NCBI GenBank assembly: GCA_043718785.1
Contig: JAYSVA010000426.1
Location: forward strand, 1-44,031
Source: Hyphomicrobiaceae bacterium
Lineage (GTDB): Bacteria > Pseudomonadota > Alphaproteobacteria > Rhizobiales > Hyphomicrobiaceae
DNA length: 44,031 nt
Direction of reading: 5' to 3'
The translations under genes and the position numbers were made by a program. This document shows, piece after piece, positions 10,435 to 35,596 of the stretch (its first letter is position 1; every line of letters starts with the position of its first letter). The notes below the pieces were generated by a model. The model had not been told where the DNA came from. It saw only the letters and a program-made list of their open reading frames with translations, and made no database searches.

Positions 10435-10440
10435 TGCGTT

Positions 10441-13291: not shown

Positions 13292-14088
13292 CCGGCGGCT
13301 TTGGCGTCGCGGTCCCAGTTCAAGGTGACGGCGAAGTCAGCATGATCGACGGCAGCAAAGCCTTGGATCAGCAAGGCACTGCCGAGCGCGGGGAACCACG
13401 GTTTGGTGCTGGCATTGGCGAAGGCGGCGCGGAGGCGAGCGACGGCTGCGGGGGCTAACGTTTTCGCCGCAACGAAAGCGGGCATCGGCGCTAGGTCAGT
13501 CGAGTCGAGTACCCGGACTCCGGCCGTCAACTCGGGTTTGTACTTGGCAATCAGGGCATGCCAGTAGCCATCAAGCGGCCCGACATCGATGCTACCATCA
13601 AGCACGGAATCAAGGATCTTCCGGGCTGTGATCAGATTGCCAACCGCCCCTGCGTAGACGTTGGGCCGGGCGGCAGTGCGATAGGGTAGCAGGTGGTGGC
13701 GCAACGCGTTGAAGCCTGAGTGCGAATGCGCCACCGTCCAGCCGACGCGTCCGCCAAACGTGTCGGCCAGAGCGCGGTAAGGACGATCTGCCCTGACGAT
13801 CAGATCCGAGCGATAAACCGCGCGTCCCGCAGCCCAAGCGAGTGCTGGAATAGGTGCTGCCAACGGCGTCACGTCGGCAATTTTGAGGGCAATGGGATAG
13901 CCACACATTTGCACGCAGCCGAGGTCATCGCGACGCCACAAGTGCTCGAGTGGCTGCGGTGCGGGGTAGGGCAAATAGTCCAGTGGCACGCCCGCATCGC
14001 TGCTGATGTGCGCGATCAGCGTCTGCCACGCGGCCTCAGCCTCGGGCGCCACCGCATACATCCGTGCGTTGGCGATCAGGCTGGTCAT
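13273..14088 (-). CDS. PhnD-like (phosphate/phosphonate-type) substrate-binding-fold protein with no signal peptide
   Basis: 271-aa ORF whose N-terminus (MTSLIANARMYAVAPEAEAAWQTLI...) is typical of the PhnD-like family. There is no hydrophobic leader. Its start overlaps the OCD-family stop as ATGA (14085..14088). Confidence 0.7.
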   Translation of the reverse strand: MTSLIANARMYAVAPEAEAAWQTLIAHISSDAGVPLDYLPYPAPQPLEHLWRRDDLGCVQMCGYPIALKIADVTPLAAPIPALAWAAGRAVYRSDLIVRADRPYRALADTFGGRVGWTVAHSHSGFNALRHHLLPYRTAARPNVYAGAVGNLITARKILDSVLDGSIDVGPLDGYWHALIAKYKPELTAGVRVLDSTDLAPMPAFVAAKTLAPAAVARLRAAFANASTKPWFPALGSALLIQGFAAVDHADFAVTLNWDRDAKAAGYSVPA

Positions 14089-15116
14089 GCGAACCTCAGC
14101 CGTTGGCCGACGCCGAGTTTCTCGCCCTTCGCAAGCATGGCATGGCCGAGGGCAATATCTGAAAGCGAAAGCCCGCGATGCCAGAACAGGATGGTTTCAT
14201 CGTCACGCTCGCGGCCGGGTTTCAGGCCAGCCACCACTTGGCCGATCTCGGCGTAGAAGCGGTCGGGGCCGAGCTTGCCGGCGTCGAATAGGGGCTTGAG
14301 CGCGCCGAACCGACCGGCCCGGGCTTGGCCGAAGTCGTCCATCAGGAACTTGTCGGCGATGTCGGCCAGCGACAGCTCGACGGCGCTCATCGTACCGTAC
14401 GGCATCACCAGTGCGCCCTTTTTGATCCATGCGGTTTTCAGCAGCGGTTCCGGCTGCGCCAGTCGCGAAGCTTCCACCACGATGTCAGCGCCGCGAACAC
14501 AACTCTCCCAGTCGTCAGTGACGATAATCTTCTTGCCCAGATCATGTTCGAGGCGCGCGCCAAACGCATCGCGGCTTTCCGGGCGGCGGGAATGCACGCG
14601 AATTTCGTCAAAGTTGAACAGCTTGTCCATCAAGCGCACGTTCCAGTAGGCGGTGCCGCGCGCGCCGATATGGCCAAGGATTTTCGCGTTCTTTGGAGCC
14701 AGATACTTGGCGCCAATGGCCGTAACCGCCCCGGTCCGCATGTCGGTGATGGCGGAGGCGTCGATGATCGCTTTCGGCACGCCGATGCGGCGATCAAACA
14801 GCAGCAGCAGTGCCAGTTCGGAGGGTAACTTGTGCAAGTAGTTGTCGTAGAAATCGGACACAACTTTCACCCCGGCTGCATCAACCTCGCCGCCGAGTGA
14901 CCCGCGCAGCACGTTGAAATGGCCGCGTGCCACCCCTGGCTCCAAATGCATGCGCGGCTCGATTACCGCTTCGCCGCGCCCTTGCGTCGCGAGCTGACCT
15001 TCGATGGCAGCAAGAATTTCATCATCGGTGATGTTCAGTGCTTCGACGTCAAACCGGTTCATGTAGGTGAAGTACAGCGGCGGCATGCCGGCGTAGTCTT
15101 TGCCATACTCGTTCAT
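14085..15116 (-). CDS. Ornithine cyclodeaminase / mu-crystallin family enzyme
   Basis: The ORF-track frame is 14085..15242. I place the start at ATG 15116 (MNEYGKDYAG...), preceded by AAGGAG, giving 343 aa. The family pattern includes a Rossmann region (ILGHIGARGTAYWN). Confidence 0.85.
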   Translation of the reverse strand: MNEYGKDYAGMPPLYFTYMNRFDVEALNITDDEILAAIEGQLATQGRGEAVIEPRMHLEPGVARGHFNVLRGSLGGEVDAAGVKVVSDFYDNYLHKLPSELALLLLFDRRIGVPKAIIDASAITDMRTGAVTAIGAKYLAPKNAKILGHIGARGTAYWNVRLMDKLFNFDEIRVHSRRPESRDAFGARLEHDLGKKIIVTDDWESCVRGADIVVEASRLAQPEPLLKTAWIKKGALVMPYGTMSAVELSLADIADKFLMDDFGQARAGRFGALKPLFDAGKLGPDRFYAEIGQVVAGLKPGRERDDETILFWHRGLSLSDIALGHAMLAKGEKLGVGQRLRFA

Positions 15117-15229
15117 TGTGGCTCCTTGAGGCGACACCCTGGTGCGTTCAACGTGTAGTCTGTCGCATATTGCGCGGCATGAAAAGCACGTCATGATGCG
15201 GGACGGGGGCGAGGAACAGCGATCAAACC

Positions 15230-16513
15230 ATGACGACACCACAAAACACTGGGCAAAGTTCCGGGCGCTATTCGGGGCTGCGGCTGCTGATGGAAGCGCT
15301 GCGGGGCAACCGCGGCTGGTCGGCGGCGTGGCGCGATGCGAGCCCGCAAGCTGCTTATGACGTGGTCATTGTCGGCGGCGGTGGGCATGGTCTCGCGACG
15401 GCGTACAACCTCGCCAAGCAGCACGGTATCACCAACGTCGCGGTGGTCGAAAAGGGCGTGATTGGCCTTGGCAATGTCGGGCGTAACACCACGATCATCC
15501 GCTCGAATTACTTCTCAGCCGAGAACATTCGGTTCTATGACGCCTCGCTGAAGCTGTGGGAGCGGTTCGAGCAGGAGCTCAACTTCAACGCCATGGTGAG
15601 CCAACGGGGCACCCTCAATCTGGTGCATTCCGATGGCCAGCGCGACCTGTTCGCCCGCCGGGCCAACGCCATGCGGCTGGAGGGCGTCGATGTCACCTGG
15701 CTGGATAAGGCGGCGGTGAAAGCCAAGGTGCCGCTGATCGAGACGGAACAGGGCCGCTATCCGGTGCTCGGCGGATTTTTCCAGCAGCGCGGGGGTACGG
15801 TGCGTCACGATGCGGTGGTGTGGGCCTATGCCCGGGCGGCGAGTGCGCTGGGCGTCGATATCATCCAACACTGTGAAGTGACCGGCGTGCAGCGTGACGG
15901 CGATGCCGTCGCCGGGGTGGAGACCACGCGCGGCGTCATCAAGGCCAGGAAGGTGCTATTCGCGGTCGCTGGGCATTCGTCGCGGCTGGCCGAGATGGCC
16001 GGGTTCCGGCTGCCAATTGAGACGCACGTGCTGCAGGCCTTCGTCACCGAGAGCATCAAGCCCTGCCTCGATTGCGTCGTGACCTACGGTGCCGGGCACT
16101 TCTACGTCAGCCAGTCGGATAAGGGTGGGCTGGTTTATGGCGGCGCCACGGACGGCTACAACAGCTACGGCCAACGCGGCACTATGCCGATGGTCGAGGA
16201 GGTGCACGCTGCCGGTCGGACACTGATGCCGGCGCTGTCGCGGCTGCGTGTCCTGCGGCAGTGGGGCGGGGTGATGGACATGTCGATGGACGGCAACCCG
16301 ATCATATCGACGACGCCGGTGCGCAACCTCACGATCAATGGCGGCTGGTGCTATGGCGGCTTCAAGGCGATTCCTGCGGGCGGCATGGTGACGGCGCATC
16401 TGGTGGCGACTGGCCAGCCCCACCCGCTGGCCAGCCATTTCGGCCTCGACCGCTTCCGCTCTGGCCACACCATCGACGAGCGCGGTGTCGGCCCTTATCC
16501 GTGGATGCATTAA
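15230..16513 (+). CDS. soxB: Heterotetrameric sarcosine oxidase, beta subunit
   Basis: 427-aa ORF. The stretch RYSGLRLLMEALRGNRGW...YDVVIVGGGGHGLATAYNLAKQHGITNVAVVEKG...GRNTTIIRSNY matches the SoxB N-terminus and FAD-binding fold. Confidence 0.9.
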   Translation: MTTPQNTGQSSGRYSGLRLLMEALRGNRGWSAAWRDASPQAAYDVVIVGGGGHGLATAYNLAKQHGITNVAVVEKGVIGLGNVGRNTTIIRSNYFSAENIRFYDASLKLWERFEQELNFNAMVSQRGTLNLVHSDGQRDLFARRANAMRLEGVDVTWLDKAAVKAKVPLIETEQGRYPVLGGFFQQRGGTVRHDAVVWAYARAASALGVDIIQHCEVTGVQRDGDAVAGVETTRGVIKARKVLFAVAGHSSRLAEMAGFRLPIETHVLQAFVTESIKPCLDCVVTYGAGHFYVSQSDKGGLVYGGATDGYNSYGQRGTMPMVEEVHAAGRTLMPALSRLRVLRQWGGVMDMSMDGNPIISTTPVRNLTINGGWCYGGFKAIPAGGMVTAHLVATGQPHPLASHFGLDRFRSGHTIDERGVGPYPWMH

Positions 16514-16516
16514 ATC

Positions 16517-16798
16517 ATGCTGCAAATCAAATGCCCACATTGCGGCCCGCGCGACGAGGCTGAATTCCGCTATCGCGGCGATGCGACGCTGACGCGCCCG
16601 GCTGTCGATGCAGGTATCAATGCGTTCGCGTCGTACGTGTTCGAGCGTGCCAATCCGGCAGGTTGGCAGACCGAGTGGTGGCAGCATGCCCACGGCTGCC
16701 GCGCGGTGCTGAAGGTGGTGCGGCACACCCTGACGCACGAGATCTCTGGCGTGGGGCTGCCGGGCGAGACGCTGGCGGTGCCGGAGGGGGCGGCATGA
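16517..16798 (+). CDS. soxD: Sarcosine oxidase, delta subunit
   Basis: 93-aa ORF. MLQIKCPHCGPRDEAEFRYRGDA...WWQHAHGCR is the SoxD zinc-ribbon pattern. The gene sits in the canonical position between soxB and soxA. Confidence 0.9.
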   Translation: MLQIKCPHCGPRDEAEFRYRGDATLTRPAVDAGINAFASYVFERANPAGWQTEWWQHAHGCRAVLKVVRHTLTHEISGVGLPGETLAVPEGAA

Positions 16799-19683
16799 GT
16801 GGATTTCGGCTGCCGAACGGCGGCACAAACATCAACCGCGACCAGTCGATGCGGTTCCAGTTCGACGGTAAGTCATATGCAGGATATCAGGGCGACACGC
16901 TGGCGTCGGCACTGCTAGCGAACGGCGTGCGGCTGACGGGACGAAGCTTCAAATATCACCGTCCGCGCGGCATCGTCACAGCCGGGTTAGAAGAGCCGTG
17001 CGCACTGGTCGAGATGGCAGCCGGGGCATGGCGCACGCCTAATCTGCCCGCAACCGCTGTCGAGCTGTTCGATACGCTGACGGTCACGAGCCAGAACCGG
17101 TTTCCATCGCTGCGTTACGATCTGATGGCGGTGAACGGGTTGATGGCTCCAGCGCTATCGGCGGGCTTCTACTACAAGTCGTTTATGTGGCCAGCGAAGT
17201 TCTGGGAGCGGATTTACGAGCCTGTCATCCGTCGCGCTGCCGGGCTTGGACGGCTGGCGAAGGGGGCGGTCGATGACCGCTATGACCATCAGCACCACCA
17301 TTGCGATGTGCTGGTGGTCGGCGCTGGCCCGGCTGGATGGGCTGCGGCGGCTATCGCTTTGGCCGGCGGACAACGCGTGATGGTGGTCGAGCAGGACAAC
17401 ATGCCCGGTGGCGGCTATCTGACAGCGCCAGCCATCGGCTTTGACAGCACCAAAGCGGCTGCGGGTTTTATCAGCTTTCCGAACGCTCAACTGCTCACGC
17501 GTACGGCGGTAATCGGCGCATACGATGGCGTGTTTGCAGCCGTTGAGCGGCACAGGCCCGGATTACCTGCCCGCGAAACCCTGCACATCATCCGTGCCCG
17601 CCAGACGATCTTGGCAACCGGGGCGGTGGAGCGGCTGATCGCGTTTCCGGATAACGACCGGCCCGGGGTGATGCTGGCGTCGGCAGCGCGGGCGTACCTG
17701 AACCGCTGGGGCGTGGCGGTCGGGCGGCGCGTGGCGCTGTTCGCCAACAACGATGAGGCCTATCAGACGGCGCACGAGCTGCGGGCGGCTGGCGTTGAGA
17801 TTGCGGCGATCATCGATCCGCGACCGGAGTCGTGGGTGGCAGCAGCAGCGATCAAGGCGGGCATCCGCGTGCTGCTGGATGAGGAGGTTTATAGTGTCGG
17901 CTACAGCCGGTCGCGCGGCCTGTACGAGGTCCACACCCGCCGTCGCGGCGACCAGGGTGGCGTGCCCGTCGCCTGCGATACGCTGCTGGTCTCCGGCGGC
18001 TATTCTCCGCAAGTGCAGCTGGCAACGCAGGCCGGTGCCAAGCTGGCCTGGGATGACCGCATTGCCGGGTTCGTGGCGGGTGCAACGGCAACCGTCCGAA
18101 CGGCAGGGGCCGCGCGCGGCGTGTATGGTCTGGCTGAAGCTATGGCAGATGGTGAGGCCGCAGGGCGGGGGGAGGCGACGGAACCGGTGCCACAGCACAC
18201 CCCCATGCTGCCATTCTGGGAGGTCCGGGTTGGCAGCGGGGCGAAGTCGTTTGTCGATCTGCAGCATGATGTGACGGCTGCCGACATGCGGCTGGCGCAT
18301 CAAGAGGGCTATTCGCATGTTGAGCATGCGAAGCGGTACACCACGCATGGCATGGGCACCGATCAGGGCAAGATCGGTGGGCTCGTTGGCTCGGCGGTGT
18401 TGGCGGCGGCGCGTGGCGCGGCGCTGGCGGAGGTGGGTCTGTCAAAGCCACGACCGTTCACCCAACCAGTGTCGTGGGGGGCGCTGGCCGGGCCGGACGT
18501 GGGCCATCATTTCAAGCCGCAACGGCTGCTGCCGCTACACGACTGGCACACGCGGAACCACGCCGTGTTCGTCAAAATTGGCCTGTGGATGCGGCCGCTG
18601 GTGTATTCGGCGACGGGTGATACCAGCTGGGGGCCGGTGCTGGCGGAGGCGCGCGCCGTGCGCCGCTCGGTTGGCGTCACCGATATGTCGTCGCTCGGCA
18701 AGATCGACGTGCAGGGGCCTGATGCGGGCCAATTCCTCGACCGCATTTATGCGAACACGTTCTCAAGCCTGCCAGTAGGCCGTGCCCGCTACGGCATCAT
18801 GCTGCGCGAGGACGGCATGATGCTGGATGACGGCACCACGGCGCGGCTCGGTGAGCAGCACTTTCTGGTGACCGCTACAACCCAGAAGGCCGCTGATGTG
18901 CTGGAGCATATGGAGTGGCATCTGGCGACCGTCTGGCCCGAGCTTGACGTGACTTTGACCAACGTCGCCGATCAGTGGGCGCAGTTTGCCATCGCCGGGC
19001 CGCAGGCGCGGAAGGTGGTGGAGAAACTGGTCACGGGGCGTGCGGTGACGAACGAAGCGTTCCCTTTCATGGCGGCGGGCGAGGCGACCATCGCCGGTGT
19101 CGCTGGTCGGTTGTTCCGCATCTCGTTCTCAGGTGAGGCGGCATACGAGGTGGCCGTGCCCGCGCAGCACGCTGAGGCGGTATGGGTTGCCATTCTGGCC
19201 GCAGGCAACGCGTTCGATATCGTGCCGTATGCGCTGGATGCGCTTAACTTGATGCGGATCGAGAAAGGCCATGTCACCGGTGGCGAAATCAACGGCCAGA
19301 CCACGGCGGCCGACCTCGGCTTTGGTAAGATGCTGAAGAAAAAGGGCGATTTCGTTGGCAAAGCGCTGAGCCAGCGTGATGGTCTGCTCGATCCCAAACG
19401 GCTACAACTGGTCGGCATCACGCCGGTCGATACGGCGAAGCGGCTGCGTGGCGGCGGGCATCTGGTGGGGCTTAGCGGGGCTGGGCCAAGCCAGGGTTAC
19501 GTGACCGCCGCCTGCATGACATCGGAAGGCGAGGGCTGGATCGGCTTAGCGCTACTGAACGGTGGCCATAGCCGCTACGGCGAGCGACTGATTGCCGCCT
19601 CGCCCGTATTCGATGAAGTCGTCGAAGTTGTGATCAGCAGCCCCCATCGCCTCGACCCGGAGAATGCCCGTGTCAAAGCCTAA
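16795..19683 (+). CDS. soxA: Sarcosine oxidase, alpha subunit
   Basis: The ORF-track frame starts at 16663 and overlaps all of soxD. The ATG at 16795 forms an ATGA overlap with the soxD stop and gives MSGFRLPNGG...FQFDGKSYAGYQGDTLASALLANGV, a typical SoxA N-terminus. The C-terminal half resembles the GcvT folate-binding domain. Confidence 0.9.
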   Translation: MSGFRLPNGGTNINRDQSMRFQFDGKSYAGYQGDTLASALLANGVRLTGRSFKYHRPRGIVTAGLEEPCALVEMAAGAWRTPNLPATAVELFDTLTVTSQNRFPSLRYDLMAVNGLMAPALSAGFYYKSFMWPAKFWERIYEPVIRRAAGLGRLAKGAVDDRYDHQHHHCDVLVVGAGPAGWAAAAIALAGGQRVMVVEQDNMPGGGYLTAPAIGFDSTKAAAGFISFPNAQLLTRTAVIGAYDGVFAAVERHRPGLPARETLHIIRARQTILATGAVERLIAFPDNDRPGVMLASAARAYLNRWGVAVGRRVALFANNDEAYQTAHELRAAGVEIAAIIDPRPESWVAAAAIKAGIRVLLDEEVYSVGYSRSRGLYEVHTRRRGDQGGVPVACDTLLVSGGYSPQVQLATQAGAKLAWDDRIAGFVAGATATVRTAGAARGVYGLAEAMADGEAAGRGEATEPVPQHTPMLPFWEVRVGSGAKSFVDLQHDVTAADMRLAHQEGYSHVEHAKRYTTHGMGTDQGKIGGLVGSAVLAAARGAALAEVGLSKPRPFTQPVSWGALAGPDVGHHFKPQRLLPLHDWHTRNHAVFVKIGLWMRPLVYSATGDTSWGPVLAEARAVRRSVGVTDMSSLGKIDVQGPDAGQFLDRIYANTFSSLPVGRARYGIMLREDGMMLDDGTTARLGEQHFLVTATTQKAADVLEHMEWHLATVWPELDVTLTNVADQWAQFAIAGPQARKVVEKLVTGRAVTNEAFPFMAAGEATIAGVAGRLFRISFSGEAAYEVAVPAQHAEAVWVAILAAGNAFDIVPYALDALNLMRIEKGHVTGGEINGQTTAADLGFGKMLKKKGDFVGKALSQRDGLLDPKRLQLVGITPVDTAKRLRGGGHLVGLSGAGPSQGYVTAACMTSEGEGWIGLALLNGGHSRYGERLIAASPVFDEVVEVVISSPHRLDPENARVKA

Positions 19684-20290
19684 CACCCTTCACGTTGAAC
19701 CATCGGGGCTGCTCGAAATCGCGGCCCGGCGCGGGCAGCTGGCGGTGCTGTCGGCGTTGCTTGAAAGCAAAATCGGTATCGGATTTCCTGGGCCTGGGCG
19801 TGCCACAGCCGTAGGTTGGGTCAAGCCCTCTCGCGCGATCCAACATTCCACGGGTGGTCGTGAAGTTGTTGGGTCGCGCCAAAGCTTGACCCAACCTACA
19901 GGCACTGGGCTCTGGATCGGGCCGGAGCGGGCGCTGCTGCTGGCCGACGCGTTGACGATTGCGGCCGTTCGGGAGGCAGTGACACCCGCCCGTGCAGCAT
20001 TGATCGACCAGACGAGCGGTTACGTTGTCTGGCAGCTGGCTGGCCCTGACGCCCGCCGCGTGCTGGCCCGACTTTGCCGCATCGATCTTGATGAGAGCGT
20101 ATTTGGCATTGCTCACGTCGCCCGCACGATCATGGCGCAGATCCCAACGATTCTACAGATGATTGACGACCGCCCGACTTTCCGGCTGATTGTTCCCAGC
20201 ACCCTCGCCCGCGCCTTCGGCGAAAGCATTGAACTTGCCGCTGGTGCTAGCGGCATCGACCTTCACACCAAGTCCGAGCTAGCCCCATGA
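19664..20290 (+). CDS. soxG: Sarcosine oxidase, gamma subunit, carrying an in-frame repeat-element insertion
   Basis: 208-aa ORF in the canonical position after soxA. A SoxG-like segment is present (...GLWIGPERALLLAD...). Codons for roughly AVGWVKPSRAIQHSTGGREVVGSRQSLTQPTGT are supplied by the repeat at 19811..19899. The stop overlaps the next gene's start as ATGA. Confidence 0.75.
   Translation: MPVSKPNTLHVEPSGLLEIAARRGQLAVLSALLESKIGIGFPGPGRATAVGWVKPSRAIQHSTGGREVVGSRQSLTQPTGTGLWIGPERALLLADALTIAAVREAVTPARAALIDQTSGYVVWQLAGPDARRVLARLCRIDLDESVFGIAHVARTIMAQIPTILQMIDDRPTFRLIVPSTLARAFGESIELAAGASGIDLHTKSELAP
19811..19899. repeat. Nested-palindrome REP-like element, copy 2 (inside the soxG reading frame)
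   Basis: It has the same perfect 16-bp outer inverted repeat (gtaggttgggtcaagc / gcttgacccaacctac), a similar inner inverted repeat (cgcgatccaac / gttgggtcgcg) and the same orientation as copy 1. It lacks the ~25-bp extra hairpin segment of copy 1. Confidence 0.85.
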
Positions 20291-22704
20291 AAACCCAAGC
20301 GCGTGTTGTCATTATCGGTGGTGGCGTGGTCGGCTGCTCGGTGCTGTATCACCTGGCGAAAGCCGGGTGGAAGGATCTGGTGCTGCTCGACAAGAACGAG
20401 CTGACGTCGGGGTCAACGTGGCATGCGGCGGGCGGGGTCACGACGCTGAATTCCGACGCGAACGTGTCGAAGCTGCAGAAGTACACGTTCGACCTGTACC
20501 GCGAACTGGAGACGGTGACCGGCCAGTCGTGCGGCATCCACCACAACGGCGGCATTTATCTGGCGGCGACTGATGGCCAGATGGACTTTCTCAAGCTGAT
20601 TCACAGCCGCGCCCGCTATCTCAGAATGGAAACCGAGCTGATCTCGGCGGCGGATGCGAAAAAGCGCAACGTGCTGATTGCCGACAAGTACTTCAAGGGG
20701 GCGCTGTGGCGTGAGGACGGCGGCTATGTCGATCCGTGGTTGGTGACGCAGGCCTATGTGACGGCGGCTAAGGCACTGGGAGCCGAGGTTGAGCGCTTCA
20801 CCAAGGTAACGGCACTCGATCAGAAGCCAACCGGCGATGGTTGGACCGTGACGACCGACAAAGGCACCATCCAGGCCGAGCACGTGGTCAACGCGGGCGG
20901 CCTGTGGGCGCGGGAAGTTGGCCGCCTGGTTGGCTTAAATCTGCCGGTGCTGGCGATGGAGCACCACTACATCGTCACCAACCCCGTGCCGGAGCTGAAG
21001 GGGCTATCGAAGGAAATCATCAACACCTCGGATTTTGAGGGCGAGATCTACCTGCGCCAGGAGGGCCAGGGCGTATTGCTTGGCACCTACGAGCAGGCCT
21101 CGCGACCGTGGGCCGAGCGCGTCACGCCAGATGACTTCCACAGCCAGCTGCTGCCGAACGATTTGGACCGGATTACGCCGGAGCTGGAGCGCGGGTTCAA
21201 GCATTTCCCGGCGCTGTCGAAGGTTGGCATCAAGAAGGTGGTCAACGGCCCGTTCACGTTCGCGCCGGACGGCAATCCGCTGGTCGGTCCGGTGAAGGGG
21301 TTGCCAAACTACTGGCTGGCCTGCGCTGTGATGGCAGGCTTCAGCCAGGGCGGTGGCATCGGTCTGGTGCTGTCGCGCTGGATGACTGAGAGCGATCCAG
21401 GCCAAGACGTGCTGGCGATGGACGCCGCCCGGTTCGGTAGCTTTGCAACGCCGAAATACACGCGCATCAAAGTGGAGGAGAACTATCGTCGCCGGTTCCG
21501 TCTTGCCTACCCGAACGAAGAAATGCCCGCCGCACGCCCGTTTCGCCAGTCGCCGGTGTATGGGCGGCTGAAAGCCAAGGGCGCGGTGTTTGGGGCCAAT
21601 TTCGGGCTGGAGAACGCGCTCTGGTTTGCGCCGCCCGGCATTGCCCCGGAAGAGACGCCGACCTATCGCCGCTCGAACGCGTTCCCCTACGTGAAAGCCG
21701 AGTGCCAAGCGGTGCGCAAAAGCGTCGGGCTGTATGAAACCACGAACTACGGCAAGTACGAAATCGTTGGGCGTGGCGCGCGGAAATGGCTGGACCGGGT
21801 GTTCGCGTGCCGCATCCCGAAACCCGGTCGCATGGGCATTGCGCCGATGTTGAACGCGCGCGGCCGGATTATGGGCGATCTGTCGATCGCCTGCCTCGCC
21901 GAGGACCGGTATCTGATTGTTGGTTCTGGCTTTGCCGAGGCGTTCCATATGCGCTGGTTTGCCGGTTCGAAACCGCCCGATGATGTGTTTATTCGCAGCG
22001 CTTGCTCAACGTTGGCAGGCTTTGCGCTGTCCGGCCCGAACGCCCGGAACTTGCTGCAGAAACTGGTCGAGGTCGATATCAGCAACGATCAATTCAAGTT
22101 TTTCGGCGTGACGGAGACCGCGGTCGGCATGTCGCCGGCGGTCATTCAGCGTTGCGGCTTTACGGGTGAACTGGGCTATGAAATCTGGGTGACGCCGGAC
22201 TACCAAGTGCAGCTGTACGAGGAGCTGTTGGACGCGGGCGCGGAATTCAATCTCGCGCACTATGGCGGGCGGGCGATTTCGTCGCTGCGGCTGGAGAAAA
22301 ACTACGGCTCGTTCAACAAGGATTTCCGGCCGGATTACACTCCCGGCGAAACCGGGCTGGATGCGTTTATCGACTTCACCAAGGGCGATTTCGTCGGCAA
22401 AGCGGCGGCGGTAAAAGAGAAGGAAAACGGCGCCGCAAAGAAGTTCGTGATGATGGTGGTTGACGCCCCGCATGCCGATGTGGTCGGCTATGAAGTGGTG
22501 CTAAAGGACAACGTTCCGGTTGGCCACGTGACGTCAGGCGGGTACGGCCATTGCGTCGGCAAGAGCTTAGCGGCGTGCTACGTGCCGACCGCGCTGGCGA
22601 ACGACGGCGAAACCTTCATTATCGATATCCTCGGCGAGCATTGTACGGCAACGATCACAGGTTCCGCCCTGCATGACCCCAAAGGTGCTAGGTTGCGCGC
22701 ATGA
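20287..22704 (+). CDS. Dimethylglycine/sarcosine-dehydrogenase-family flavoenzyme with a C-terminal GcvT-type folate-binding domain
   Basis: 805-aa ORF. It has an FAD fold (VVIIGGGVVGCSVLYHLAKAG), the covalent-FAD histidine context SGSTWHAAGG, and an aminomethyltransferase-like C-terminus (GFTGELGYEIWV). ATGA overlaps are present at both ends. Confidence 0.85.
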   Translation: MKTQARVVIIGGGVVGCSVLYHLAKAGWKDLVLLDKNELTSGSTWHAAGGVTTLNSDANVSKLQKYTFDLYRELETVTGQSCGIHHNGGIYLAATDGQMDFLKLIHSRARYLRMETELISAADAKKRNVLIADKYFKGALWREDGGYVDPWLVTQAYVTAAKALGAEVERFTKVTALDQKPTGDGWTVTTDKGTIQAEHVVNAGGLWAREVGRLVGLNLPVLAMEHHYIVTNPVPELKGLSKEIINTSDFEGEIYLRQEGQGVLLGTYEQASRPWAERVTPDDFHSQLLPNDLDRITPELERGFKHFPALSKVGIKKVVNGPFTFAPDGNPLVGPVKGLPNYWLACAVMAGFSQGGGIGLVLSRWMTESDPGQDVLAMDAARFGSFATPKYTRIKVEENYRRRFRLAYPNEEMPAARPFRQSPVYGRLKAKGAVFGANFGLENALWFAPPGIAPEETPTYRRSNAFPYVKAECQAVRKSVGLYETTNYGKYEIVGRGARKWLDRVFACRIPKPGRMGIAPMLNARGRIMGDLSIACLAEDRYLIVGSGFAEAFHMRWFAGSKPPDDVFIRSACSTLAGFALSGPNARNLLQKLVEVDISNDQFKFFGVTETAVGMSPAVIQRCGFTGELGYEIWVTPDYQVQLYEELLDAGAEFNLAHYGGRAISSLRLEKNYGSFNKDFRPDYTPGETGLDAFIDFTKGDFVGKAAAVKEKENGAAKKFVMMVVDAPHADVVGYEVVLKDNVPVGHVTSGGYGHCVGKSLAACYVPTALANDGETFIIDILGEHCTATITGSALHDPKGARLRA

Positions 22705-24269
22705 CCGAAACCTCCTCCCCTGAGATACCACCGATTCCGGCTGCCCCGAAACGCCGCGACCGTACCAAGCCGGTGCGCTCGGTCGGGCCGAGCCTCGCGC
22801 CGATCCAGCGGCTGACCAACCGCTGGGCGCCCATTGAGATCCTCACGTCCGAGCAGGTCGAGCGCATCCTCAACGCCGCGTTCCGGATTCTGGCGGAGGA
22901 TGGCCTCGAGATCCGCAACGAGGTGGCGCTGGAGATTTATCGCAAGGCCGGCTGCTTGGTGGATGATGTCACCCAGGTGGTGCGTATTGGCCGCGATATC
23001 GTCGAGGCGATGCTGGCGCATGTACCTGCCAGCTTCGTGCTGCACGCCCGTAACAGCACGCGCGATCTGCATGTCGGCGGTTCCGTCGTCAATTTCGGGC
23101 CGGTCAACGGCGCGCCGCACATCACGGATATGGATGGGGGGAGGCGGTATGGCGATCACGCTGCGTTCCGCGATATCCTCAAGATCACGCATACACTGGG
23201 CATTCTGCATTGGCAGGGTGGCGTGGTGGTGGAGCCGGTTGATCTGCCGGTGCCGGTGCGGCATCTGGCAATGTACCGCTCGCATATCGAGCTCTCGGAT
23301 CTCGTGTGGGCCGCGCGCGGCGTCGGTGGTGTGCAGGCGGCGGATGCCATCGCAATGTCGGCGATTGAGCACCAATGCTCCGTTGAGGATTTGGGCCGCC
23401 GCCCGACGCTGATGACGGTCACCAACGTCAACTCGCCGCGCCGCGTCGATGCCGAAATCCTCGACAATATCATGACGATGGCCGGTGCCGGGCAGTGTGT
23501 GGTGATTACACCATTCACGTTGATGGGGGCGATGGCCCCCGTCACGCTGGCGGGGGCGCTGGTGCAGCAGACGGCCGAGGCGCTGGGCATCATTGCGCTG
23601 TGCCAAATGGTGCGCCCCGGTGCGCCATGCGTGATGGGTGGGTTCACCTCCAACGTTGACATGCGCACGGGGTCGCCGGCATTCGGCACGCCGGAGTATG
23701 TCAATGCAACCTTGGCCACAGCACAGCTCGGCCGCCGCCTCAAGATTCCGGTGCGGACGTCGGCCGTGAATGCGTCGCCCGTGGTCGATGCGCAGTCGAC
23801 GTATGAGACGGCGTTCTCGCTATGGGCGGCAATTATGAGCCACAGCCACTTGATCAATCACGCGGCGGGGTGGTTGGAAGGCGGGCTGTCGGCCTCGATG
23901 GAGAAAATTATCGTCGATGCCGAGCTGCTGCGCGGGTGGGCGGAAATCCTCAAGCCGATTGAGTTCACCGATGATGACATCGGCATTGATGCGATCAAGG
24001 GTGTGCCGCCAGGTGGGCATTTCTTCGGCTCACCGCACACGATCGCGCGCTATGAGAATGCGTTTTACCGGCCGCTGCTGTCGGACTGGACCAATTTTGA
24101 AACCTGGACCGAGGCGGGCAGCAAAAACGCTACCGACCGTGCACGCGAGCTGTGGAAGAAGATGCGCGACCAATACGTGCCGCCGCCGCTTGATCCGGCA
24201 ATAGCTGAGGCGCTCGACGCCTACGTGGCCAAACGTCACGAGGAGATCGGACGCGCCCCGGTTGCGTAA
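22701..24269 (+). CDS. MttB-superfamily (trimethylamine methyltransferase-like) protein, non-pyrrolysine type
   Basis: 522-aa uninterrupted ORF with no in-frame TAG. The pattern LTSEQVERILNAAFRILAEDGLEI...EIYRKAGC... continues through to the C-terminal ...AIKGVPPGGHFFGSPHT..., which is characteristic of MttB-family proteins. Confidence 0.8.
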   Translation: MTETSSPEIPPIPAAPKRRDRTKPVRSVGPSLAPIQRLTNRWAPIEILTSEQVERILNAAFRILAEDGLEIRNEVALEIYRKAGCLVDDVTQVVRIGRDIVEAMLAHVPASFVLHARNSTRDLHVGGSVVNFGPVNGAPHITDMDGGRRYGDHAAFRDILKITHTLGILHWQGGVVVEPVDLPVPVRHLAMYRSHIELSDLVWAARGVGGVQAADAIAMSAIEHQCSVEDLGRRPTLMTVTNVNSPRRVDAEILDNIMTMAGAGQCVVITPFTLMGAMAPVTLAGALVQQTAEALGIIALCQMVRPGAPCVMGGFTSNVDMRTGSPAFGTPEYVNATLATAQLGRRLKIPVRTSAVNASPVVDAQSTYETAFSLWAAIMSHSHLINHAAGWLEGGLSASMEKIIVDAELLRGWAEILKPIEFTDDDIGIDAIKGVPPGGHFFGSPHTIARYENAFYRPLLSDWTNFETWTEAGSKNATDRARELWKKMRDQYVPPPLDPAIAEALDAYVAKRHEEIGRAPVA

Positions 24270-24364
24270 AACAGGTTGCGTAAAATATCTTGCCGGGCTG
24301 ATGCCGTTAGTCTTTGATACCGGCAAAACGCAGAACACGTATCCGTTTAGGGGAGACTGCCACG

Positions 24365-25915
24365 ATGACACGCATGAACCGTCGCCAGGTGCTGGCTGGT
24401 ACAACCGTTGCTAGCTTGGCTGCCGTGCTCGATATGCAGGCAGGCCTGTTCGCTCAGGGCGCTGCCAAAACCAGCATCAATGTCCGCGTCGACCGCGACC
24501 TGGATGTGCTCGACCCCGGCTACCGCACCGGCCCGATGGATGGCAATGTCATCCGCGCCGTATTCCAACGTCTCGTCAAGCAGAAGGCGAACGCGGCGGA
24601 ACTGGAAAACGATGCCGCGTCGGAGGTCAAGCAGACCTCACCTACGACCATTGAATTCACGTTGAAGCCGGGCCAGATGTTCACCGACGGTTACGGCGAA
24701 ATGACCGCCGAGGATGTGAAATTCTCGTTTGAGCGCATTGGTTTGGCACCACAAGGTGGCCGCAAAGACTCGCCGTACAAAGGCGACTGGATCCATCTGG
24801 AAAAGGTTGAAGTGACCGGCAAGCTCACGGGTAAAATCACGCTGTCAAAACCCCGTGCCAACCTGTTCAACATTGCGTTGGCCGATGTGTCCGGCTCTAT
24901 CGTCTCAAAGAAAGCGGTTGAGGAGCGCGGACTTGACCATAACACTAAGCCGGTCGGTTCGGGTGCGTATCAGGTGACGGCGCTGGAAAAGCAAAAAGGC
25001 TGCACGCTGAAGCGTCATGCCGCCTATACCGGCCCCAAACCGGCGTTTGAGGAAATAGCGGTCAAGTTCATTTCAGACCCGAAAACGACGGAGTTGGCGC
25101 TGCGCTCGGGCGAGCTAGACTTCGCTGTGTTGCCGCCCGCCATCGCTGAACCGCTGAAATCAGTTGCAGGTTTGACGGTGTCGGAGCAGCCGAGCATCGC
25201 GTACCTCTGGATTGGCATGAACGTCGAAAAGGGGCCGCTTGCTGACTTGAAGGTACGGCAGGCGATCCGTCTCGGCCTCGATGTCGATCAGATGCTGCTG
25301 GCTGGTTACAACGGCAAGGCACCACGCCTCAACACACTGCTGCCGCCGCAAATCCAGGGCCACTGGAAGGACGCGCCGGTCTACAAGCGCAACGTCGCTG
25401 AGGCGAAGAAGCTGCTCACTGAAGCTGGAAAGACGGATGTAAAGCTCAAGATCACAGTGCTCAATCAGCCCGTGTATCAGAACATGGCGCTGGTGGCGCA
25501 GGCGCTACTGAAAGAGATCGGCGTGACGCTCGAAGTCGATGCGCAGGAGGGCGGCACCTACTGGTCGGCGGGTAAGGGCGATGCGGGCAAGAACCTGGAT
25601 CTGTTCATTATGCGCTTCAATGGCAAGCATGATCCGAACTTCATCATGCAGTGGTTTGTTCCTGGCCAAATCGGCACTTGGAACTGGCAGCGCTGGACGT
25701 CGCCGGAATTCGAGAAAGTCTACAACGATGCGGCGACCGAACTTGATCCGGCGAAGCGGGCAGCACTCGCCATCGAAGCCCAAAAGCTGATGGACCAGAG
25801 CGCCGCTTTCATCTGGCTGACCAACGAGGTCAATATGCTCGCCCACCGCAGTTGGTTGAAGCCAGCTGGCGTGCCCGGCTGGCTCGACTGGCAGTATGAG
25901 AACTTCGGGGCATAA
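24365..25915 (+). CDS. ABC transporter substrate-binding protein, family 5 (peptide/opine/nickel type)
   Basis: The ORF-track frame starts at 24314. The ATG at 24365 is preceded by GGGGAG and gives a Tat-like signal (MTRMNRRQVLAGTTVASLAAVL...). The 516-aa size and sequence pattern fit SBP family 5. Confidence 0.85.
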   Translation: MTRMNRRQVLAGTTVASLAAVLDMQAGLFAQGAAKTSINVRVDRDLDVLDPGYRTGPMDGNVIRAVFQRLVKQKANAAELENDAASEVKQTSPTTIEFTLKPGQMFTDGYGEMTAEDVKFSFERIGLAPQGGRKDSPYKGDWIHLEKVEVTGKLTGKITLSKPRANLFNIALADVSGSIVSKKAVEERGLDHNTKPVGSGAYQVTALEKQKGCTLKRHAAYTGPKPAFEEIAVKFISDPKTTELALRSGELDFAVLPPAIAEPLKSVAGLTVSEQPSIAYLWIGMNVEKGPLADLKVRQAIRLGLDVDQMLLAGYNGKAPRLNTLLPPQIQGHWKDAPVYKRNVAEAKKLLTEAGKTDVKLKITVLNQPVYQNMALVAQALLKEIGVTLEVDAQEGGTYWSAGKGDAGKNLDLFIMRFNGKHDPNFIMQWFVPGQIGTWNWQRWTSPEFEKVYNDAATELDPAKRAALAIEAQKLMDQSAAFIWLTNEVNMLAHRSWLKPAGVPGWLDWQYENFGA

Positions 25916-25999
25916 CCGGTCTGATTGCAGCAAGCGATGCCCCCCCTCTTCCCGCGCAAGAGCCGAGCACAGGGAGCGGGAGAAGAACGGAGCGCCTTT

Positions 26000-26968
26000 G
26001 TGAGCAGCCAGACCGTGAACTATGCGCTCAGCCGCCTGGTCACGACGGTGTTCATCGTGTTCGGAGCTATGTTGCTGCTGTTCACGCTATCGGCGATTGT
26101 GCCGGGTGACCCAGCAACCACACTGCTGGGTCCTCAGGCGTCGCCAGAATCGGTCAAGCGCTTTATCCAGGAGATGGGACTTGATCAGCCCATCCATGTG
26201 CGGCTAGCGCGATTTTTCGGCAACTTGCTGACCGGCAACCTTGGCACCGACGTGCTGTCCGGGCGCAGCGTCAACAGCATGGTGTGGGCTGTACTGCCGT
26301 ACACGTTCCTGCTGACGTTTCTAGCCATCGGGCTGGCGGTGCTGATTGGCGTGCCCCTCGGCGTGTTCGCGGCGACGCATCGCGGCTCTGTCATGGACCA
26401 TGTGTTGGCCTTCATCTCGGTAGCGTTCATCGCGGTGCCGAGCTTTGTCATCGCGATATTTCTGCTGCTGATTTTCTCGATCTGGCTCGATTGGCTGCCG
26501 GTTCTGGGCGCCGGCAAAACCGGCGACTGGGGGGATCAGGCCAAGCGGCTGATCTTGCCGACGCTGGCACTATCAGCGGGTTGGATCGGTTTCATCGCCC
26601 GGCTCGTCCGCACGTCGATGCTGGAAGTGCTGGCCGAAAACTATATCCGCACGTCGCGCGCCTATGGTCTTTCGGAGCGTCTAGTGACCTACAAATATGC
26701 ACTCAAAAACGCCTGCATCCCGACCATTGCCATCCTCGGCATGGGCATCGGGCGATTGTTGGGGGGCGCGGTGCTCGTCGAAATTGTGTTTGCCCGCCCG
26801 GGTTTGGGGCGGTTGATCTTTGACGCGGTGGCCAGCCGCAACTACCCCGTCGTGCAAGGTGCGGTGCTTGTTGTGGTGGTGATTTTCGTCATCGTCAATC
26901 TGATCGTGGATCTGTCATACTCGTTGATTGATCCGCGGATCAATCGTCATGGTGAGGGCGGCCACTGA
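26000..26968 (+). CDS. ABC transporter permease (DppB/OppB-like)
   Basis: The ORF-track frame starts at 25925. The GTG at 26000, preceded by GGAG, gives a typical 322-aa permease beginning ..NYALSRLVTTVFIVFG. The start is uncertain by about 25 codons. Confidence 0.8.
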   Translation: MSSQTVNYALSRLVTTVFIVFGAMLLLFTLSAIVPGDPATTLLGPQASPESVKRFIQEMGLDQPIHVRLARFFGNLLTGNLGTDVLSGRSVNSMVWAVLPYTFLLTFLAIGLAVLIGVPLGVFAATHRGSVMDHVLAFISVAFIAVPSFVIAIFLLLIFSIWLDWLPVLGAGKTGDWGDQAKRLILPTLALSAGWIGFIARLVRTSMLEVLAENYIRTSRAYGLSERLVTYKYALKNACIPTIAILGMGIGRLLGGAVLVEIVFARPGLGRLIFDAVASRNYPVVQGAVLVVVVIFVIVNLIVDLSYSLIDPRINRHGEGGH

Positions 26969-27822
26969 TGGGCATACTCCGGGATATCGCTACGGTGCTG
27001 CGCCGTGTCTGCGGCAGTTTTGCCGGAGCCATCGGCTGTGCCATTGTAACGGTGGTGATCCTAGCGGCGCTTCTCGCCCCCTGGATTGCGACGCATAACC
27101 CTGACCAGCTCGACGTGATGAACCGGTTCGCTAAACCGTCGTTGCAGCACTGGTTCGGTTCCGATCATCTCGGCCGTGATTTGTACTCGCGCATCGTGCA
27201 TGGTGCGTCGGTGGCCATGGTTGTGGCACTCACGGCAATTGCCGCAGCGCTGACCCTCGGGACGATGCTGGGCATTCTGGCCGCGTACCTACCCGCCCGT
27301 ACCGAGCGGTTGGTGCTGATCCTGTTCGACGTGATTTCATCGTTCCCGAGCCTCGTGCTGGCGCTCGCCATTGTTGCAGTGTTTGGCCCGTCGACGGGCA
27401 TCGTTGTGCTGATCGTTGCGATCACGTTGATCCCGCATTTTGGTCGCGTCGCGCGGGCCCAAGTGTTGACGTTGAGAAGCGCGCCGTTCCTGGAGGCTGA
27501 GCGCATTCTCGGCGCGTCGAACACCCGGATTGTGTTCCATCACATTCTGCCGAACATACTTGGACCACTGATCGTACTGGCGTCGATGGATATCCCCGTC
27601 GTGATCACCATCGAAGCTGGATTGTCGTTCCTGGGCCTCGGGGTCCGTCCGCCGCTGGCGAGTTGGGGTGGGCTGATCCAAGACGGTTATCAAACCCTTT
27701 CAGACAGCTGGGTGCCCGTTGTTGTCTCCAGCGCGGCGCTGGCGATTGCGACGCTCGGTTTCACGTTGTTCGGCGAAAACCTCCGTGATGCCGTGGATCC
27801 GCGCATCGGTCGGGAGCGCTGA
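26968..27822 (+). CDS. ABC transporter permease (DppC/OppC-like)
   Basis: 284-aa hydrophobic ORF. It overlaps the upstream permease gene as TGATG. It carries a DppC-like N-terminal region and an EAA-type loop (FLEAERILGAS). Confidence 0.85.
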   Translation: MGILRDIATVLRRVCGSFAGAIGCAIVTVVILAALLAPWIATHNPDQLDVMNRFAKPSLQHWFGSDHLGRDLYSRIVHGASVAMVVALTAIAAALTLGTMLGILAAYLPARTERLVLILFDVISSFPSLVLALAIVAVFGPSTGIVVLIVAITLIPHFGRVARAQVLTLRSAPFLEAERILGASNTRIVFHHILPNILGPLIVLASMDIPVVITIEAGLSFLGLGVRPPLASWGGLIQDGYQTLSDSWVPVVVSSAALAIATLGFTLFGENLRDAVDPRIGRER

Positions 27823-27824
27823 GA

Positions 27825-29828
27825 ATGGAACGGGCCAAGACCGGACCACTGGTCAGCATCCGCAATCTGACGCTCGATGCGACGACGGCACAGGGAACCG
27901 CGCATATTTTGCGTGGTGTCGATCTTGATATCGGGCGCGGCCGCATTCTTGGTGTGGTCGGTGAATCCGGCTCTGGTAAGTCAAGTCTCGCATCGGCTTT
28001 GACTGGACTGCTGAGTGCCAATGTGGCGGTAACGGCCGGTGTCATTGACTTTGATGGCACCGATTTGTTGCAGCTGAGCGACCGGCAGATGCACGCCCTT
28101 CGTGGTGACCGCATCGCCATGATTTTCCAAGACCCGATGACGGCGCTGAATCCGCTATTCACGATTGCAACTCACCTCATCGATGTGATCCAGCGCCAGG
28201 CGCCGGAGACGAGCCGACGGATGGCTCTGGCAAAGGCTGAGGCAGTTCTGACGACGGTCGGGATTGCCGACGCGGAGATGCGCCTACAAGCCTATCCGCA
28301 TCAGTTATCCGGTGGCATGCGTCAACGTGTGATGATTGCGATGGCACTGCTGGTGGCGCCAGATCTACTGTTGGCGGACGAACCGACCACGGCACTCGAT
28401 GCGACTGTCGAAGCGCAGATCGTGAGCCTGCTGGCGGATCTGCGGCGGGATTTTGCCGGCACGATCGTTTTTATCTCACATCATTTGGGTTTGGTTGCTG
28501 AGTTATGTGATGATGTTTGTGTGATGTATGGCGGCACCATCGTCGAGGCGGGTGGCGTTGCGGATGTTCTAGTCAACCCGAAGCATCCGTACACAGCAGC
28601 GTTGCTGGCCTGCGAGATTGACGACGATCCACCAGATGGTCGTCTTATCTCAGTGCCCGGTGACGTGCCTGATCCGCGCTTCGAGGGGGCGGGTTGCATC
28701 TTCGCGCCCCGGTGCACGCACGCAGTGGAGCGCTGCCGCACCGAAGTTCCGCGATCCCGCGCTGCTGGTATGGGGCGAACGGCGGCGTGCCATCGGCTAG
28801 AAGATTTGAACTTGGCGGCGGCAGGTGGTGTTGTGGCGGGCAAACCGCCTGAACGCGTTGCGGCGCGGGCGGAGCAGCCTCTGATTACTTTTGATGGCGT
28901 GTCGGTGGTCTATGATGGTCGGGTACGGGCGCTGGATGACGTCAGGCTCAACCTGAGCCAAGGTGAGATCGTCGGGCTGGTCGGCGAGTCCGGATCTGGT
29001 AAAACGACGCTGTGCCGTACGCTGATCGGATTGACGGCGCCAACGGATGGCACTGTGCTGTTTGATGGCGAGCCCGTTGCAGCGCATCTGGCGACCCAAC
29101 CTCTGGCCTTTCGCCGCCGCATGCAGATGCTGCTGCAGGATGCAGTGGCGTCACTGTCGCCGCGTATGACGATCGGCCAAGCGTTGGAGGAGCCGCTGCG
29201 CATTCATAGTCTGCCACTGAACGAAGGGCGAGAGCGTTTGCGCTACATCGTTCAGCGGTTAGGTCTTTCCCCTGAGATCCTGCAGAAGTTCCCGCATCAG
29301 ATCTCGGGCGGGCAGGCCCGCCGCATTGGCGTGGCGCGGGCGCTGGTGATGCAACCGCAGGTGATTATTGCTGACGAACCGACGGCTGGTCTTGACGTGT
29401 CCGTTCAAGGTGAGCTGCTCAATCTGCTGCTCGATCTACAGCGGGAGTTTGAACTGACGTATTTGCTGGTCAGCCACAACCTTAATGTTATCCGCCGCGT
29501 CACCCACCGGACAACGGTGATGTACCTTGGCCAGATCGTCGAAGACGGGCCGACCAGCAGCTTGTTCGAGCAACCGGCGCACCCGTATTCGGCGGCGCTG
29601 CTATCGACCAGCCCCTCAGTTGATCCGACGCGGCGGCGTAACCGCATTGTGCTATCGGGGGAAATTCCGAGTGCTGTTAATATACCCAGCGGCTGCCGCT
29701 TCCACAGCCGTTGCCCGGTGGTGATGCCGCGCTGCAGAGTTGAAGTGCCGGCGCTGCAGGCCGTTGCGCCTGGGCGGGCTGTGCGCTGCCATTTCCCGTT
29801 CACACTCGGCCGGGCGGAGGCAAGCTGA
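27825..29828 (+). CDS. Fused double ATP-binding-cassette protein (DppD-DppF-like)
   Basis: 667-aa ORF with two Walker A motifs (GESGSGKSS, GESGSGKTT) and two signature motifs (LSGGMRQR, ISGGQARR). Each half ends with the Cys-rich oligopeptide-ABC C-terminal motif. Confidence 0.9.
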   Translation: MERAKTGPLVSIRNLTLDATTAQGTAHILRGVDLDIGRGRILGVVGESGSGKSSLASALTGLLSANVAVTAGVIDFDGTDLLQLSDRQMHALRGDRIAMIFQDPMTALNPLFTIATHLIDVIQRQAPETSRRMALAKAEAVLTTVGIADAEMRLQAYPHQLSGGMRQRVMIAMALLVAPDLLLADEPTTALDATVEAQIVSLLADLRRDFAGTIVFISHHLGLVAELCDDVCVMYGGTIVEAGGVADVLVNPKHPYTAALLACEIDDDPPDGRLISVPGDVPDPRFEGAGCIFAPRCTHAVERCRTEVPRSRAAGMGRTAACHRLEDLNLAAAGGVVAGKPPERVAARAEQPLITFDGVSVVYDGRVRALDDVRLNLSQGEIVGLVGESGSGKTTLCRTLIGLTAPTDGTVLFDGEPVAAHLATQPLAFRRRMQMLLQDAVASLSPRMTIGQALEEPLRIHSLPLNEGRERLRYIVQRLGLSPEILQKFPHQISGGQARRIGVARALVMQPQVIIADEPTAGLDVSVQGELLNLLLDLQREFELTYLLVSHNLNVIRRVTHRTTVMYLGQIVEDGPTSSLFEQPAHPYSAALLSTSPSVDPTRRRNRIVLSGEIPSAVNIPSGCRFHSRCPVVMPRCRVEVPALQAVAPGRAVRCHFPFTLGRAEAS

Positions 29829-35593: not shown

Positions 35594-35596
35594 GGC

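Follow-up and report, generated by a model that had tools for sequence, protein, structure and literature searches.

Among the non-pyrrolysine (non-Pyl) members of the MttB superfamily, the glycine betaine methyltransferase MtgB of the anaerobe Desulfitobacterium hafniense is encoded in an operon linked to MtgC and MtgA, and Eubacterium limosum, an anaerobic acetogen, uses several donor-specific paralogs (MtpB, MtcB, MtyB, and MthB, for proline betaine, carnitine, gamma-butyrobetaine, and phosphocholine) that share one corrinoid protein. An aerobic counterpart was recently described in Ruegeria pomeroyi, where mtgC and mtgD knock-outs no longer grow on glycine betaine and are auxotrophic for methionine (Mausz et al. 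2025, PMC12478193). Here, we analyze an mttB homolog (positions 22701..24269, forward strand) carried by contig JAYSVA010000426.1 of a Hyphomicrobiaceae bacterium, of which the whole 44,031-nucleotide stretch, hereafter the window, was considered. The gene belongs to an operon for the oxidative demethylation of dimethylglycine and sarcosine and has no corrinoid partner in the window. With a probability of roughly 0.8, we infer that its product is a corrinoid-dependent betaine methyltransferase, the donor ("B") subunit of an aerobic MtgBCD-type system whose corrinoid cassette is unlinked in this lineage.

In R. pomeroyi, MtgC is the corrinoid protein and MtgD is a pterin-binding methyl-cobalamin:tetrahydrofolate methyltransferase (PMC12478193). 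Glycine betaine induces the pfam06253 proteins SPO2108 and SPO2134, along with MtgC (SPO2160), MtgD (SPO1863), MetF2, RamA (SPO2041), and the DUF1638 protein SPO2162, and the corresponding genes are scattered, SPO2108 and SPO2134 being encoded apart from mtgC, mtgD, ramA, and the DUF1638 gene (PMC12478193). Up to seven pfam06253 open reading frames (ORFs) occur per genome, and they are proposed to share one MtgC (PMC12478193). Since the R. pomeroyi genes are scattered and MtgC is shared, a proteobacterial MttB homolog without an adjacent corrinoid gene is the described norm and no anomaly. The initial annotation of the window had started from the premise that characterized non-Pyl MttB systems are those of anaerobes with linked partners and had, for that reason, regarded both the methyl acceptor and the chemistry of this protein as open. 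The premise is out of date given the R. pomeroyi knock-outs, and the conclusion therefore does not hold, the cassettes found in relatives of the locus (see below) speaking against it as well; the chemistry of the window protein is probably ordinary. The locus resembles the R. pomeroyi MtgBCD(E) system in that a pfam06253 donor subunit of an aerobic proteobacterium is linked to dimethylglycine/sarcosine demethylation genes, and in that the corrinoid protein, the pterin methyltransferase, the RamA/RACo activase, and DUF1638, which R. pomeroyi encodes apart from the donor subunit, are likewise lacking from the window. The Bmt/MtgE homocysteine module of R. pomeroyi-type systems is also present in relatives of the window cluster. 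This likeness is one of gene content and does not draw on the SPO2108 and SPO2134 sequences.

The mttB ORF encodes 522 amino acids from an ATG start and is uninterrupted, hence it holds no in-frame UAG (pyrrolysine) codon. Its product matches the Pfam family MTTB over the full length (PF06253, model positions 5-500 of 500, E 1.8e-179) and scores 262 bits against TIGR02369, the equivalog of the pyrrolysine trimethylamine methyltransferases, far under the cut-off of 525 bits, in agreement with its initial classification as a non-Pyl MttB homolog. The closest solved structures are 4yyc (E 2e-97) and then D. hafniense MtgB (9yce/2qne, E 9e-88), which has the same fold and belongs to the same family, and the Pyl-MttB structure 7xcl is a much weaker match (E 5e-31). 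About eight thousand MttB homologs were scored in one search, the closest of which are all ∼75 to 80% identical to the window protein; the best orthologs in the GTDB collection are likewise 75 to 80% identical. The ATG of mttB overlaps the TGA of the preceding ORF (20287..22704) in an ATGA junction (GCATGACC), and that ORF encodes a protein of the dimethylglycine dehydrogenase (DMGDH) family with GCV_T domains, so that the translational coupling to a folate-linked demethylase, as first annotated, is borne out. With the sarcosine oxidase-like genes soxBDAG and the DMGDH-family gene, mttB forms a single overlapping operon and is thus colocated with the genes for the later demethylation of dimethylglycine and sarcosine. 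A side observation concerns the 3' end of mttB: at 24260-24285, the 12-base GGTTGCGTAAAA, which holds the stop codon, is directly repeated two bases on, a duplication that is probably trivial.

The initial annotation had also reported the window to be devoid of genes for a corrinoid protein, a pterin methyltransferase, or an activase, and three kinds of search upheld this. Pfam scans of 29 window ORFs (mostly of at least 150 amino acids) detected no B12-binding, pterin-binding, RACo, DUF1638, or homocysteine-methyltransferase domain; phmmer with the four domains of Escherichia coli MetH gave no match among all stop-to-stop ORFs of at least 60 amino acids in the window; and tblastn of the MtgC, DUF1638, RACo, MtgD, MTHFR, and Bmt proteins of relatives against the window (E ≤ 1) returned only noise. 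Rfam detected in the window neither a cobalamin riboswitch nor any other RNA family. The lack of these genes over 44 kb, the ATGA overlap that couples mttB to an enzyme itself carrying a folate domain, and the fact that bmt is missing as well would be compatible with a corrinoid-independent chemistry, in which the partner is truly lacking and the methyl group passes directly to tetrahydrofolate, perhaps that bound by DMGDH, or to another acceptor. We nevertheless consider this scenario highly improbable. The GCV_T domain of the DMGDH family captures a one-carbon unit at the level of formaldehyde, not a methyl group. The characterized members of the superfamily in the literature cited here act via cobalamin or a cognate corrinoid protein, and orthologs 69 to 78% identical to the window protein adjoin MtgC, DUF1638, and RACo genes in nine genomes, the cassette being unlinked in seven further metagenome-assembled genomes (MAGs).

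The closest cultured orthologous cluster is located on the Terrarubrum flagellatum plasmid NZ_CP091854.1. Relative to the window proteins, its products show 78% identity for MttB (WP_342364305.1), 83% for DMGDH, and 80% for SoxB, and the similarity extends to the neighboring genes: 88% for the ornithine cyclodeaminase/mu-crystallin family (OCD) enzyme, 81% for the enolase-superfamily (MR/MLE) enzyme, 72% for a PhnD-like protein, and 66% for a fatty acid desaturase-like protein (FAdes). The order in Terrarubrum is LysR, soxBDAG, DMGDH-like, DUF1289, bmt (PF02574), mttB, MR/MLE, and M24 peptidase, followed (reading across the plasmid origin) by the ABC importer, Ldh, MR/MLE, OCD, PhnD-like, and FAdes genes and, directly after FAdes, by genes for a B12-binding protein (PF02607 + PF02310), DUF1638, and a RACo-type activase. 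The Terrarubrum cluster is the window gene set plus exactly those parts first reported to be missing.

A cassette abuts or lies near the orthologous cluster in Terrarubrum and in eight other genomes. It is found behind the PhnD-like gene in Falsiroseomonas (loci L063/L171 and L170), in a Roseomonas MAG (L174), and in L176; behind FAdes in L172 and L173; and, in the gammaproteobacterial MAGs L025 and L028, upstream of the orthologous mttB in divergent orientation. The L025 cassette comprises MtgC, a PF13769 protein, DUF5981, MTHFR, Pterin_bind, and RACo, and that of L028 lies ∼7 kb upstream of mttB, with MtgC, DUF1638, and MTHFR alone inside the locus. Terrarubrum, L063, and L070 have a Bmt/MtgE gene immediately before mttB. 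In seven MAGs, the cluster genes at the orthologous mttB locus include none of the cassette, and MtgC is encoded elsewhere in the genome, either ∼43 to 52 kb away (CAWCJE01 and CAVQVZ01), ∼430 kb away on the same contig (CAWGSX01), or on other contigs than the mttB locus (DASPRP01, MNCZ01, CAYNCY01, and JBIKXN01). No corrinoid gene is annotated near the copy on a Leisingera plasmid, and the copy on Sinorhizobium meliloti pSymA sits in an unannotated record. Both counts of genomes, nine and seven, are lower bounds, each scan retaining 80 loci at most. Across the cassettes of relatives, MtgD occurs in ∼56 and MTHFR in ∼46 of the 80 gammaproteobacterial or mixed loci, versus 39/80 and 34/80, respectively, of the alphaproteobacterial ones. 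A cognate corrinoid operon elsewhere, one outcome that the initial annotation had envisaged as overturning its view, is thus largely borne out by the gene content of relatives, contiguous with the cluster in nine genomes and unlinked in seven MAGs.

Wherever a B12-binding gene occurs near the cluster in relatives, it is of the same MtgC type, with 72 to 94% identity. This argues against a non-MtgC partner, such as the cobalamin domain of a MetH of the classical kind or some other corrinoid protein that stands alone, with which the window MttB would still be corrinoid dependent. Hyphomicrobiales often have metH and mtgBCD together (PMC12478193), and the MtgC proteins in question are those of relatives, yet we deem such a replacement unlikely and favor an MtgC-type protein. 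Of note, the MtgC sequences (L086-L249) remain 72 to 94% identical across Gamma-, Beta-, and Alphaproteobacteria and MAGs labeled Actinomycetes, Acidimicrobiia, Chloroflexi, and Ca. Udaeobacter, an unusual degree of conservation, which suggests that the protein either is strongly constrained or has spread widely by horizontal transfer.

In the window, the position after FAdes, where relatives hold the cassette, is filled by a major facilitator superfamily (MFS) transporter gene, a metallo-beta-lactamase (MBL)-fold gene, and a DNA ligase gene, and the OCD-PhnD segment is inverted relative to Terrarubrum; on these grounds, we place the absence of the cassette at a synteny break. No pseudogene remnant of the cassette was found at the break by tblastn of the relatives' cassette proteins against the window. 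As a detail of this region, the ATP-dependent DNA ligase gene and, immediately behind it, a gene that matches metallo-beta-lactamase only weakly (E 3.6e-4, short of the Pfam cut-off) occupy 7595-10284 on the reverse strand, both at the synteny break. That the break falls exactly at the mtgC-DUF1638-RACo site of relatives, and that bmt and DUF1289 are missing too, could also mean that the rearrangement took the cassette and bmt and left an orphan MttB with no working partner, either decaying or co-opted for binding only. Several observations make this very unlikely. The ratio of nonsynonymous to synonymous substitution rates (dN/dS) of mttB is 0.03 and 0.07 relative to the two closest relatives (97% identical, in JGI 3300082760, and 87% identical), both of which keep the DMGDH/mttB ATGA junction and lack bmt, and is 0.12 to 0.16 relative to more distant orthologs (four orthologs compared in all). 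Judging from the ratios to the closest relatives, mttB is under strong purifying selection, and we therefore read it as functional. In addition, the ORF is intact with every clade-invariant pocket residue present, the translational coupling is kept within a compact operon, and unlinked cassettes are common in other genomes. Because the lineage is rearranged where relatives hold the cassette, the latter would rather lie outside the window.

Four points weigh against our proposal of a corrinoid-dependent donor subunit with an unlinked cassette. First, the window protein belongs to another paralog group than the usual cassette neighbor, to which it is 39% identical. Second, bmt and DUF1289, which lie between the DMGDH and mttB genes in the four closest syntenic relatives, are absent here. 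Third, the partner genes were seen in relatives, the organism itself being represented by the 44-kb window and matching short metagenome contigs alone; an exact search with the protein returned a single 8.4-kb Logan contig. Fourth, the evidence for the B subunits of R. pomeroyi is proteomic rather than genetic (PMC12478193).

Our current working model is as follows. An Opp-type ABC system would import the betaine, which would bind in the TIM-barrel pocket of MttB with its carboxylate held by R352 and H387, and the Co(I) of a separate MtgC-type corrinoid protein would attack one of the N-methyl groups. The resulting methyl-Co(III) would be discharged either to tetrahydrofolate via an MtgD pterin methyltransferase (and then MetF) or to homocysteine via Bmt/MtgE, and oxidized cobalt would be re-reduced by a RACo/RamA-type activase together with DUF1638. 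The dimethylated product would pass to the cotranslated DMGDH-family enzyme and then to SoxBDAG, which would transfer the methyl groups still left, by oxidation, to folate of their own. The cassette is expected elsewhere in the genome, the lineage being rearranged at the very site that it occupies in relatives.

Four residues of D. hafniense MtgB (Y97, F356, R312, and H348) hold the betaine, and the Arg and His are functionally essential (PMC13080624). The carboxylate-binding R312 and H348 align to R352 and H387 of the window protein and are conserved, whereas the aromatic pair Y97/F356, which cages the quaternary nitrogen through cation-pi contacts, is replaced by N136 and G395. R352, H387, W391, and G395 do not vary among 121 clade members, the Trp being four residues before G395, and position 136 is N, T, H, S, G, or D in these proteins and never aromatic. 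The E. limosum paralogs, compared here by their published description and not by sequence, also conserve the Arg but not the aromatic pair, although their anaerobic setting is unlike that of the window. The proteobacterial paralogs adjacent to cassettes, for instance L025:57-1691, are ∼70% identical to 4yyc and keep the Tyr equivalent to Y97; they belong to the same superfamily as the window MttB and have the HxAGWLEGG motif in common with it, but are at most 42% identical to it and are unlinked to PhnD-like or FAdes genes. We observed that the 4yyc-like paralog is the usual cassette neighbor across many phyla (L086-L165), and that, in L025, two MttB paralogs that are 39% identical (57-1691 and 10010-11548) flank a single MtgC-MTHFR-MtgD-RACo cassette.

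The substrate of the window MttB would be an acidic quaternary amine, and we give about equal weight to glycine betaine and to a bulkier amino-acid betaine. Glycine betaine is supported by the presence of three demethylases in one overlapping operon, which fits a route from betaine via dimethylglycine and sarcosine to glycine, by the closeness of the DMGDH-like protein to authentic DMGDH, by the adjacency of bmt to mttB in relatives, and by an OpuAC-type betaine importer in Steroidobacteraceae relatives. Against a simple assignment to glycine betaine stand the absent aromatic pair, the paralogous relationship of the clade to the cassette-adjacent MtgB type, and the addition, in alphaproteobacterial clusters, of a DpkA-like reductase, an OCD-family enzyme, and an MR/MLE enzyme. 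Enzymes of these three families have cyclic imino acids and N-alkyl amino acids as substrates. Proline betaine-type compounds and trimethylated amino acids are candidates for a bulkier substrate. According to work reportedly done by the Gerlt laboratory in 2013-2014, HpbD-type clusters for (hydroxy)proline betaine combine an enolase-superfamily enzyme, flavin demethylases, Pyr2C-reductase-type enzymes, and a betaine importer. The window differs in lacking a Rieske demethylase (HpbB/C), no Rieske protein being found among the window ORFs scanned with Pfam, and the MttB homolog would replace that step. We rejected proline betaine degradation via HpbD as the leading explanation, and a proline-betaine assignment is not established, because the MR/MLE protein is distant from solved HpbD (E 2e-13). 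A literature search on this MttB clade, on stachydrine, or on soil clusters returned nothing relevant.

The window clade also has conserved partners that set it apart from the published description of R. pomeroyi (PMC12478193), namely the PhnD-like and FAdes proteins. The PhnD-like gene (13273..14088, reverse strand; PF12974, E 2.6e-22) encodes a cytoplasmic protein with a periplasmic-binding-protein fold and no signal peptide. A PhnD-like gene (268 to 271 amino acids) directly follows the orthologous mttB in 62 of 80 loci, precedes mtgC in L170, L171, L174, and L176, and in several genomes is flanked by mtgC on one side and by mttB or OCD on the other. This placement suggests that the PhnD-like protein has a role in the methyltransferase system. 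The family is tightly conserved: an alignment of 23 sequences has 85 invariant columns, often with aromatic or charged residues, and among solved structures AioX/PtxB-like oxyanion binders come closest (E 3e-11). Aerobic corrinoid methyltransferase systems might thus have in this protein a new accessory subunit, involved in substrate delivery or acting as a docking adaptor.

FAdes (12047..13291, forward strand; PF00487, E 3e-31) is a membrane di-iron oxygenase of the FA_desaturase family, whose gene is convergent with the OCD and PhnD-like genes. Its sequence contains three His boxes, it neighbors mttB in 53/80 loci, and its start is probably overextended, with 414 amino acids here versus 318 in the Terrarubrum ortholog. 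It matches CrtR weakly and, likewise weakly in NCBIfam, the arginine hydroxylase GntB, the latter match hinting at a small-molecule substrate. More distant MttB homologs (47 to 50% identity) are accompanied by neither the PhnD-like nor the FAdes gene. A tentative proposal, which we find possible but less probable than its negation, is that the window MttB represents a distinct clade rather than a canonical glycine betaine enzyme, that it acts on a different and probably bulkier acidic quaternary amine, and that the PhnD-like protein and the di-iron oxygenase cooperate with it; it builds on the ∼39% identity to the cassette-adjacent MtgB type and on the lack of an aromatic residue equivalent to Tyr97.

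As first posed, the observation would have pointed to a novel chemistry of methyl transfer within a protein family of great abundance. On the present evidence, the locus instead belongs, as a further member, among the recently described aerobic cobalamin-dependent systems for betaine demethylation, and a pfam06253 gene without a neighboring corrinoid gene should not be taken as corrinoid independent in annotation. The MttB clade of soil proteobacteria is large and highly conserved, and betaine turnover in soils would thereby be tied to the supply of vitamin B12. Since Terrarubrum, Falsiroseomonas, and Labrys, among other relatives, are in culture, the substrate and the roles of the partner genes are amenable to testing.

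The DMGDH-family FAD/folate demethylase (20287..22704, forward strand) has DAO, FAO_M, GCV_T, and GCV_T_C domains, and among solved structures it matches rat/human dimethylglycine dehydrogenase best (E 1.7e-165). Directly upstream, all on the forward strand and in the order soxB, soxD, soxA, soxG, are genes for a member of the sarcosine oxidase beta-subunit family (soxB-like, 15230..16513; TIGR01373, 630.7 bits, exceeding the cut-off of 529), a small subunit (soxD-like, 16517..16798; a 93-amino-acid ORF, MLQIKCPHCGPRDEAEF..., at the soxD position, whose Terrarubrum ortholog is annotated as sarcosine oxidase delta), a member of the alpha-subunit family (soxA-like, 16795..19683; TIGR01372, 1129 bits, slightly below the cut-off of 1164) with Fer2_4, SO_alpha_A3, and GCV_T domains, and a gamma subunit (soxG-like, 19664..20290; TIGR01375, E 7.7e-15). 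ATGA overlaps join soxD to soxA and soxG to the DMGDH gene, and soxA likely starts at the ATG at 16795 instead of the TTG at 16663 of the listed ORF. Divergent from soxB, the OCD-family gene (14085..15242, reverse strand; PF02423, E 1.8e-49) encodes a ketimine reductase or cyclodeaminase with PDB matches to alanine dehydrogenase (1omo) and Pyr2C reductase (6t3e) and is 79 to 88% identical in syntenic relatives.

Downstream of mttB, an Opp/Dpp-type ABC importer (24314..29828, forward strand), assigned with Pfam and NCBIfam, consists of an SBP_bac_5 binding protein, two permeases, and a fused double ATPase, and is syntenic in Terrarubrum, L063, L070, and L059 with 63 to 79% identity. The SBP_bac_5 gene (listed ORF 24314-25915, forward strand) likely starts at the ATG at 24366, behind a ribosome-binding-like GGGGAGA motif. 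The importer is followed on the same strand by genes for an Ldh_2-family oxidoreductase (29828..30817; PF02615, E 9e-87), nearest to DpkA, a delta1-piperideine/pyrroline-2-carboxylate reductase (PDB 1wtj/2cwf, E 6e-53), and for an enolase-superfamily (MR/MLE) racemase, epimerase, or dehydratase (30821..32008; MR_MLE_N and MR_MLE_C), and all of these genes are linked by gaps or overlaps of a few bases. The MR/MLE protein best matches the "isomerases" 4dye/2oqh (2e-41), HpbD (2pmq/4h2h) reaching just 2e-13, and shows a weak match to cis-3-hydroxy-L-proline dehydratase. In the Terrarubrum cluster (L081 and L166), a second MR/MLE gene overlaps the mttB stop by 4 nucleotides, the M24 peptidase is creatinase/prolidase-like, and creatininase and gamma-glutamyltransferase genes are found further on; that cluster looks like a wider catabolic island for N-methyl compounds.

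At the right end of the window, a forward frame of more than 1,300 amino acids (40121-44029), open to the window end and with repeated ...TPVNDxPVAVND... modules, looks like a giant adhesin. Beside it, on the reverse strand (32019-39870), two outer-membrane efflux (OEP) genes accompany three HlyD-family genes, one of the latter carrying a fused peptidase M50 domain, and the region as a whole resembles a type I secretion locus.

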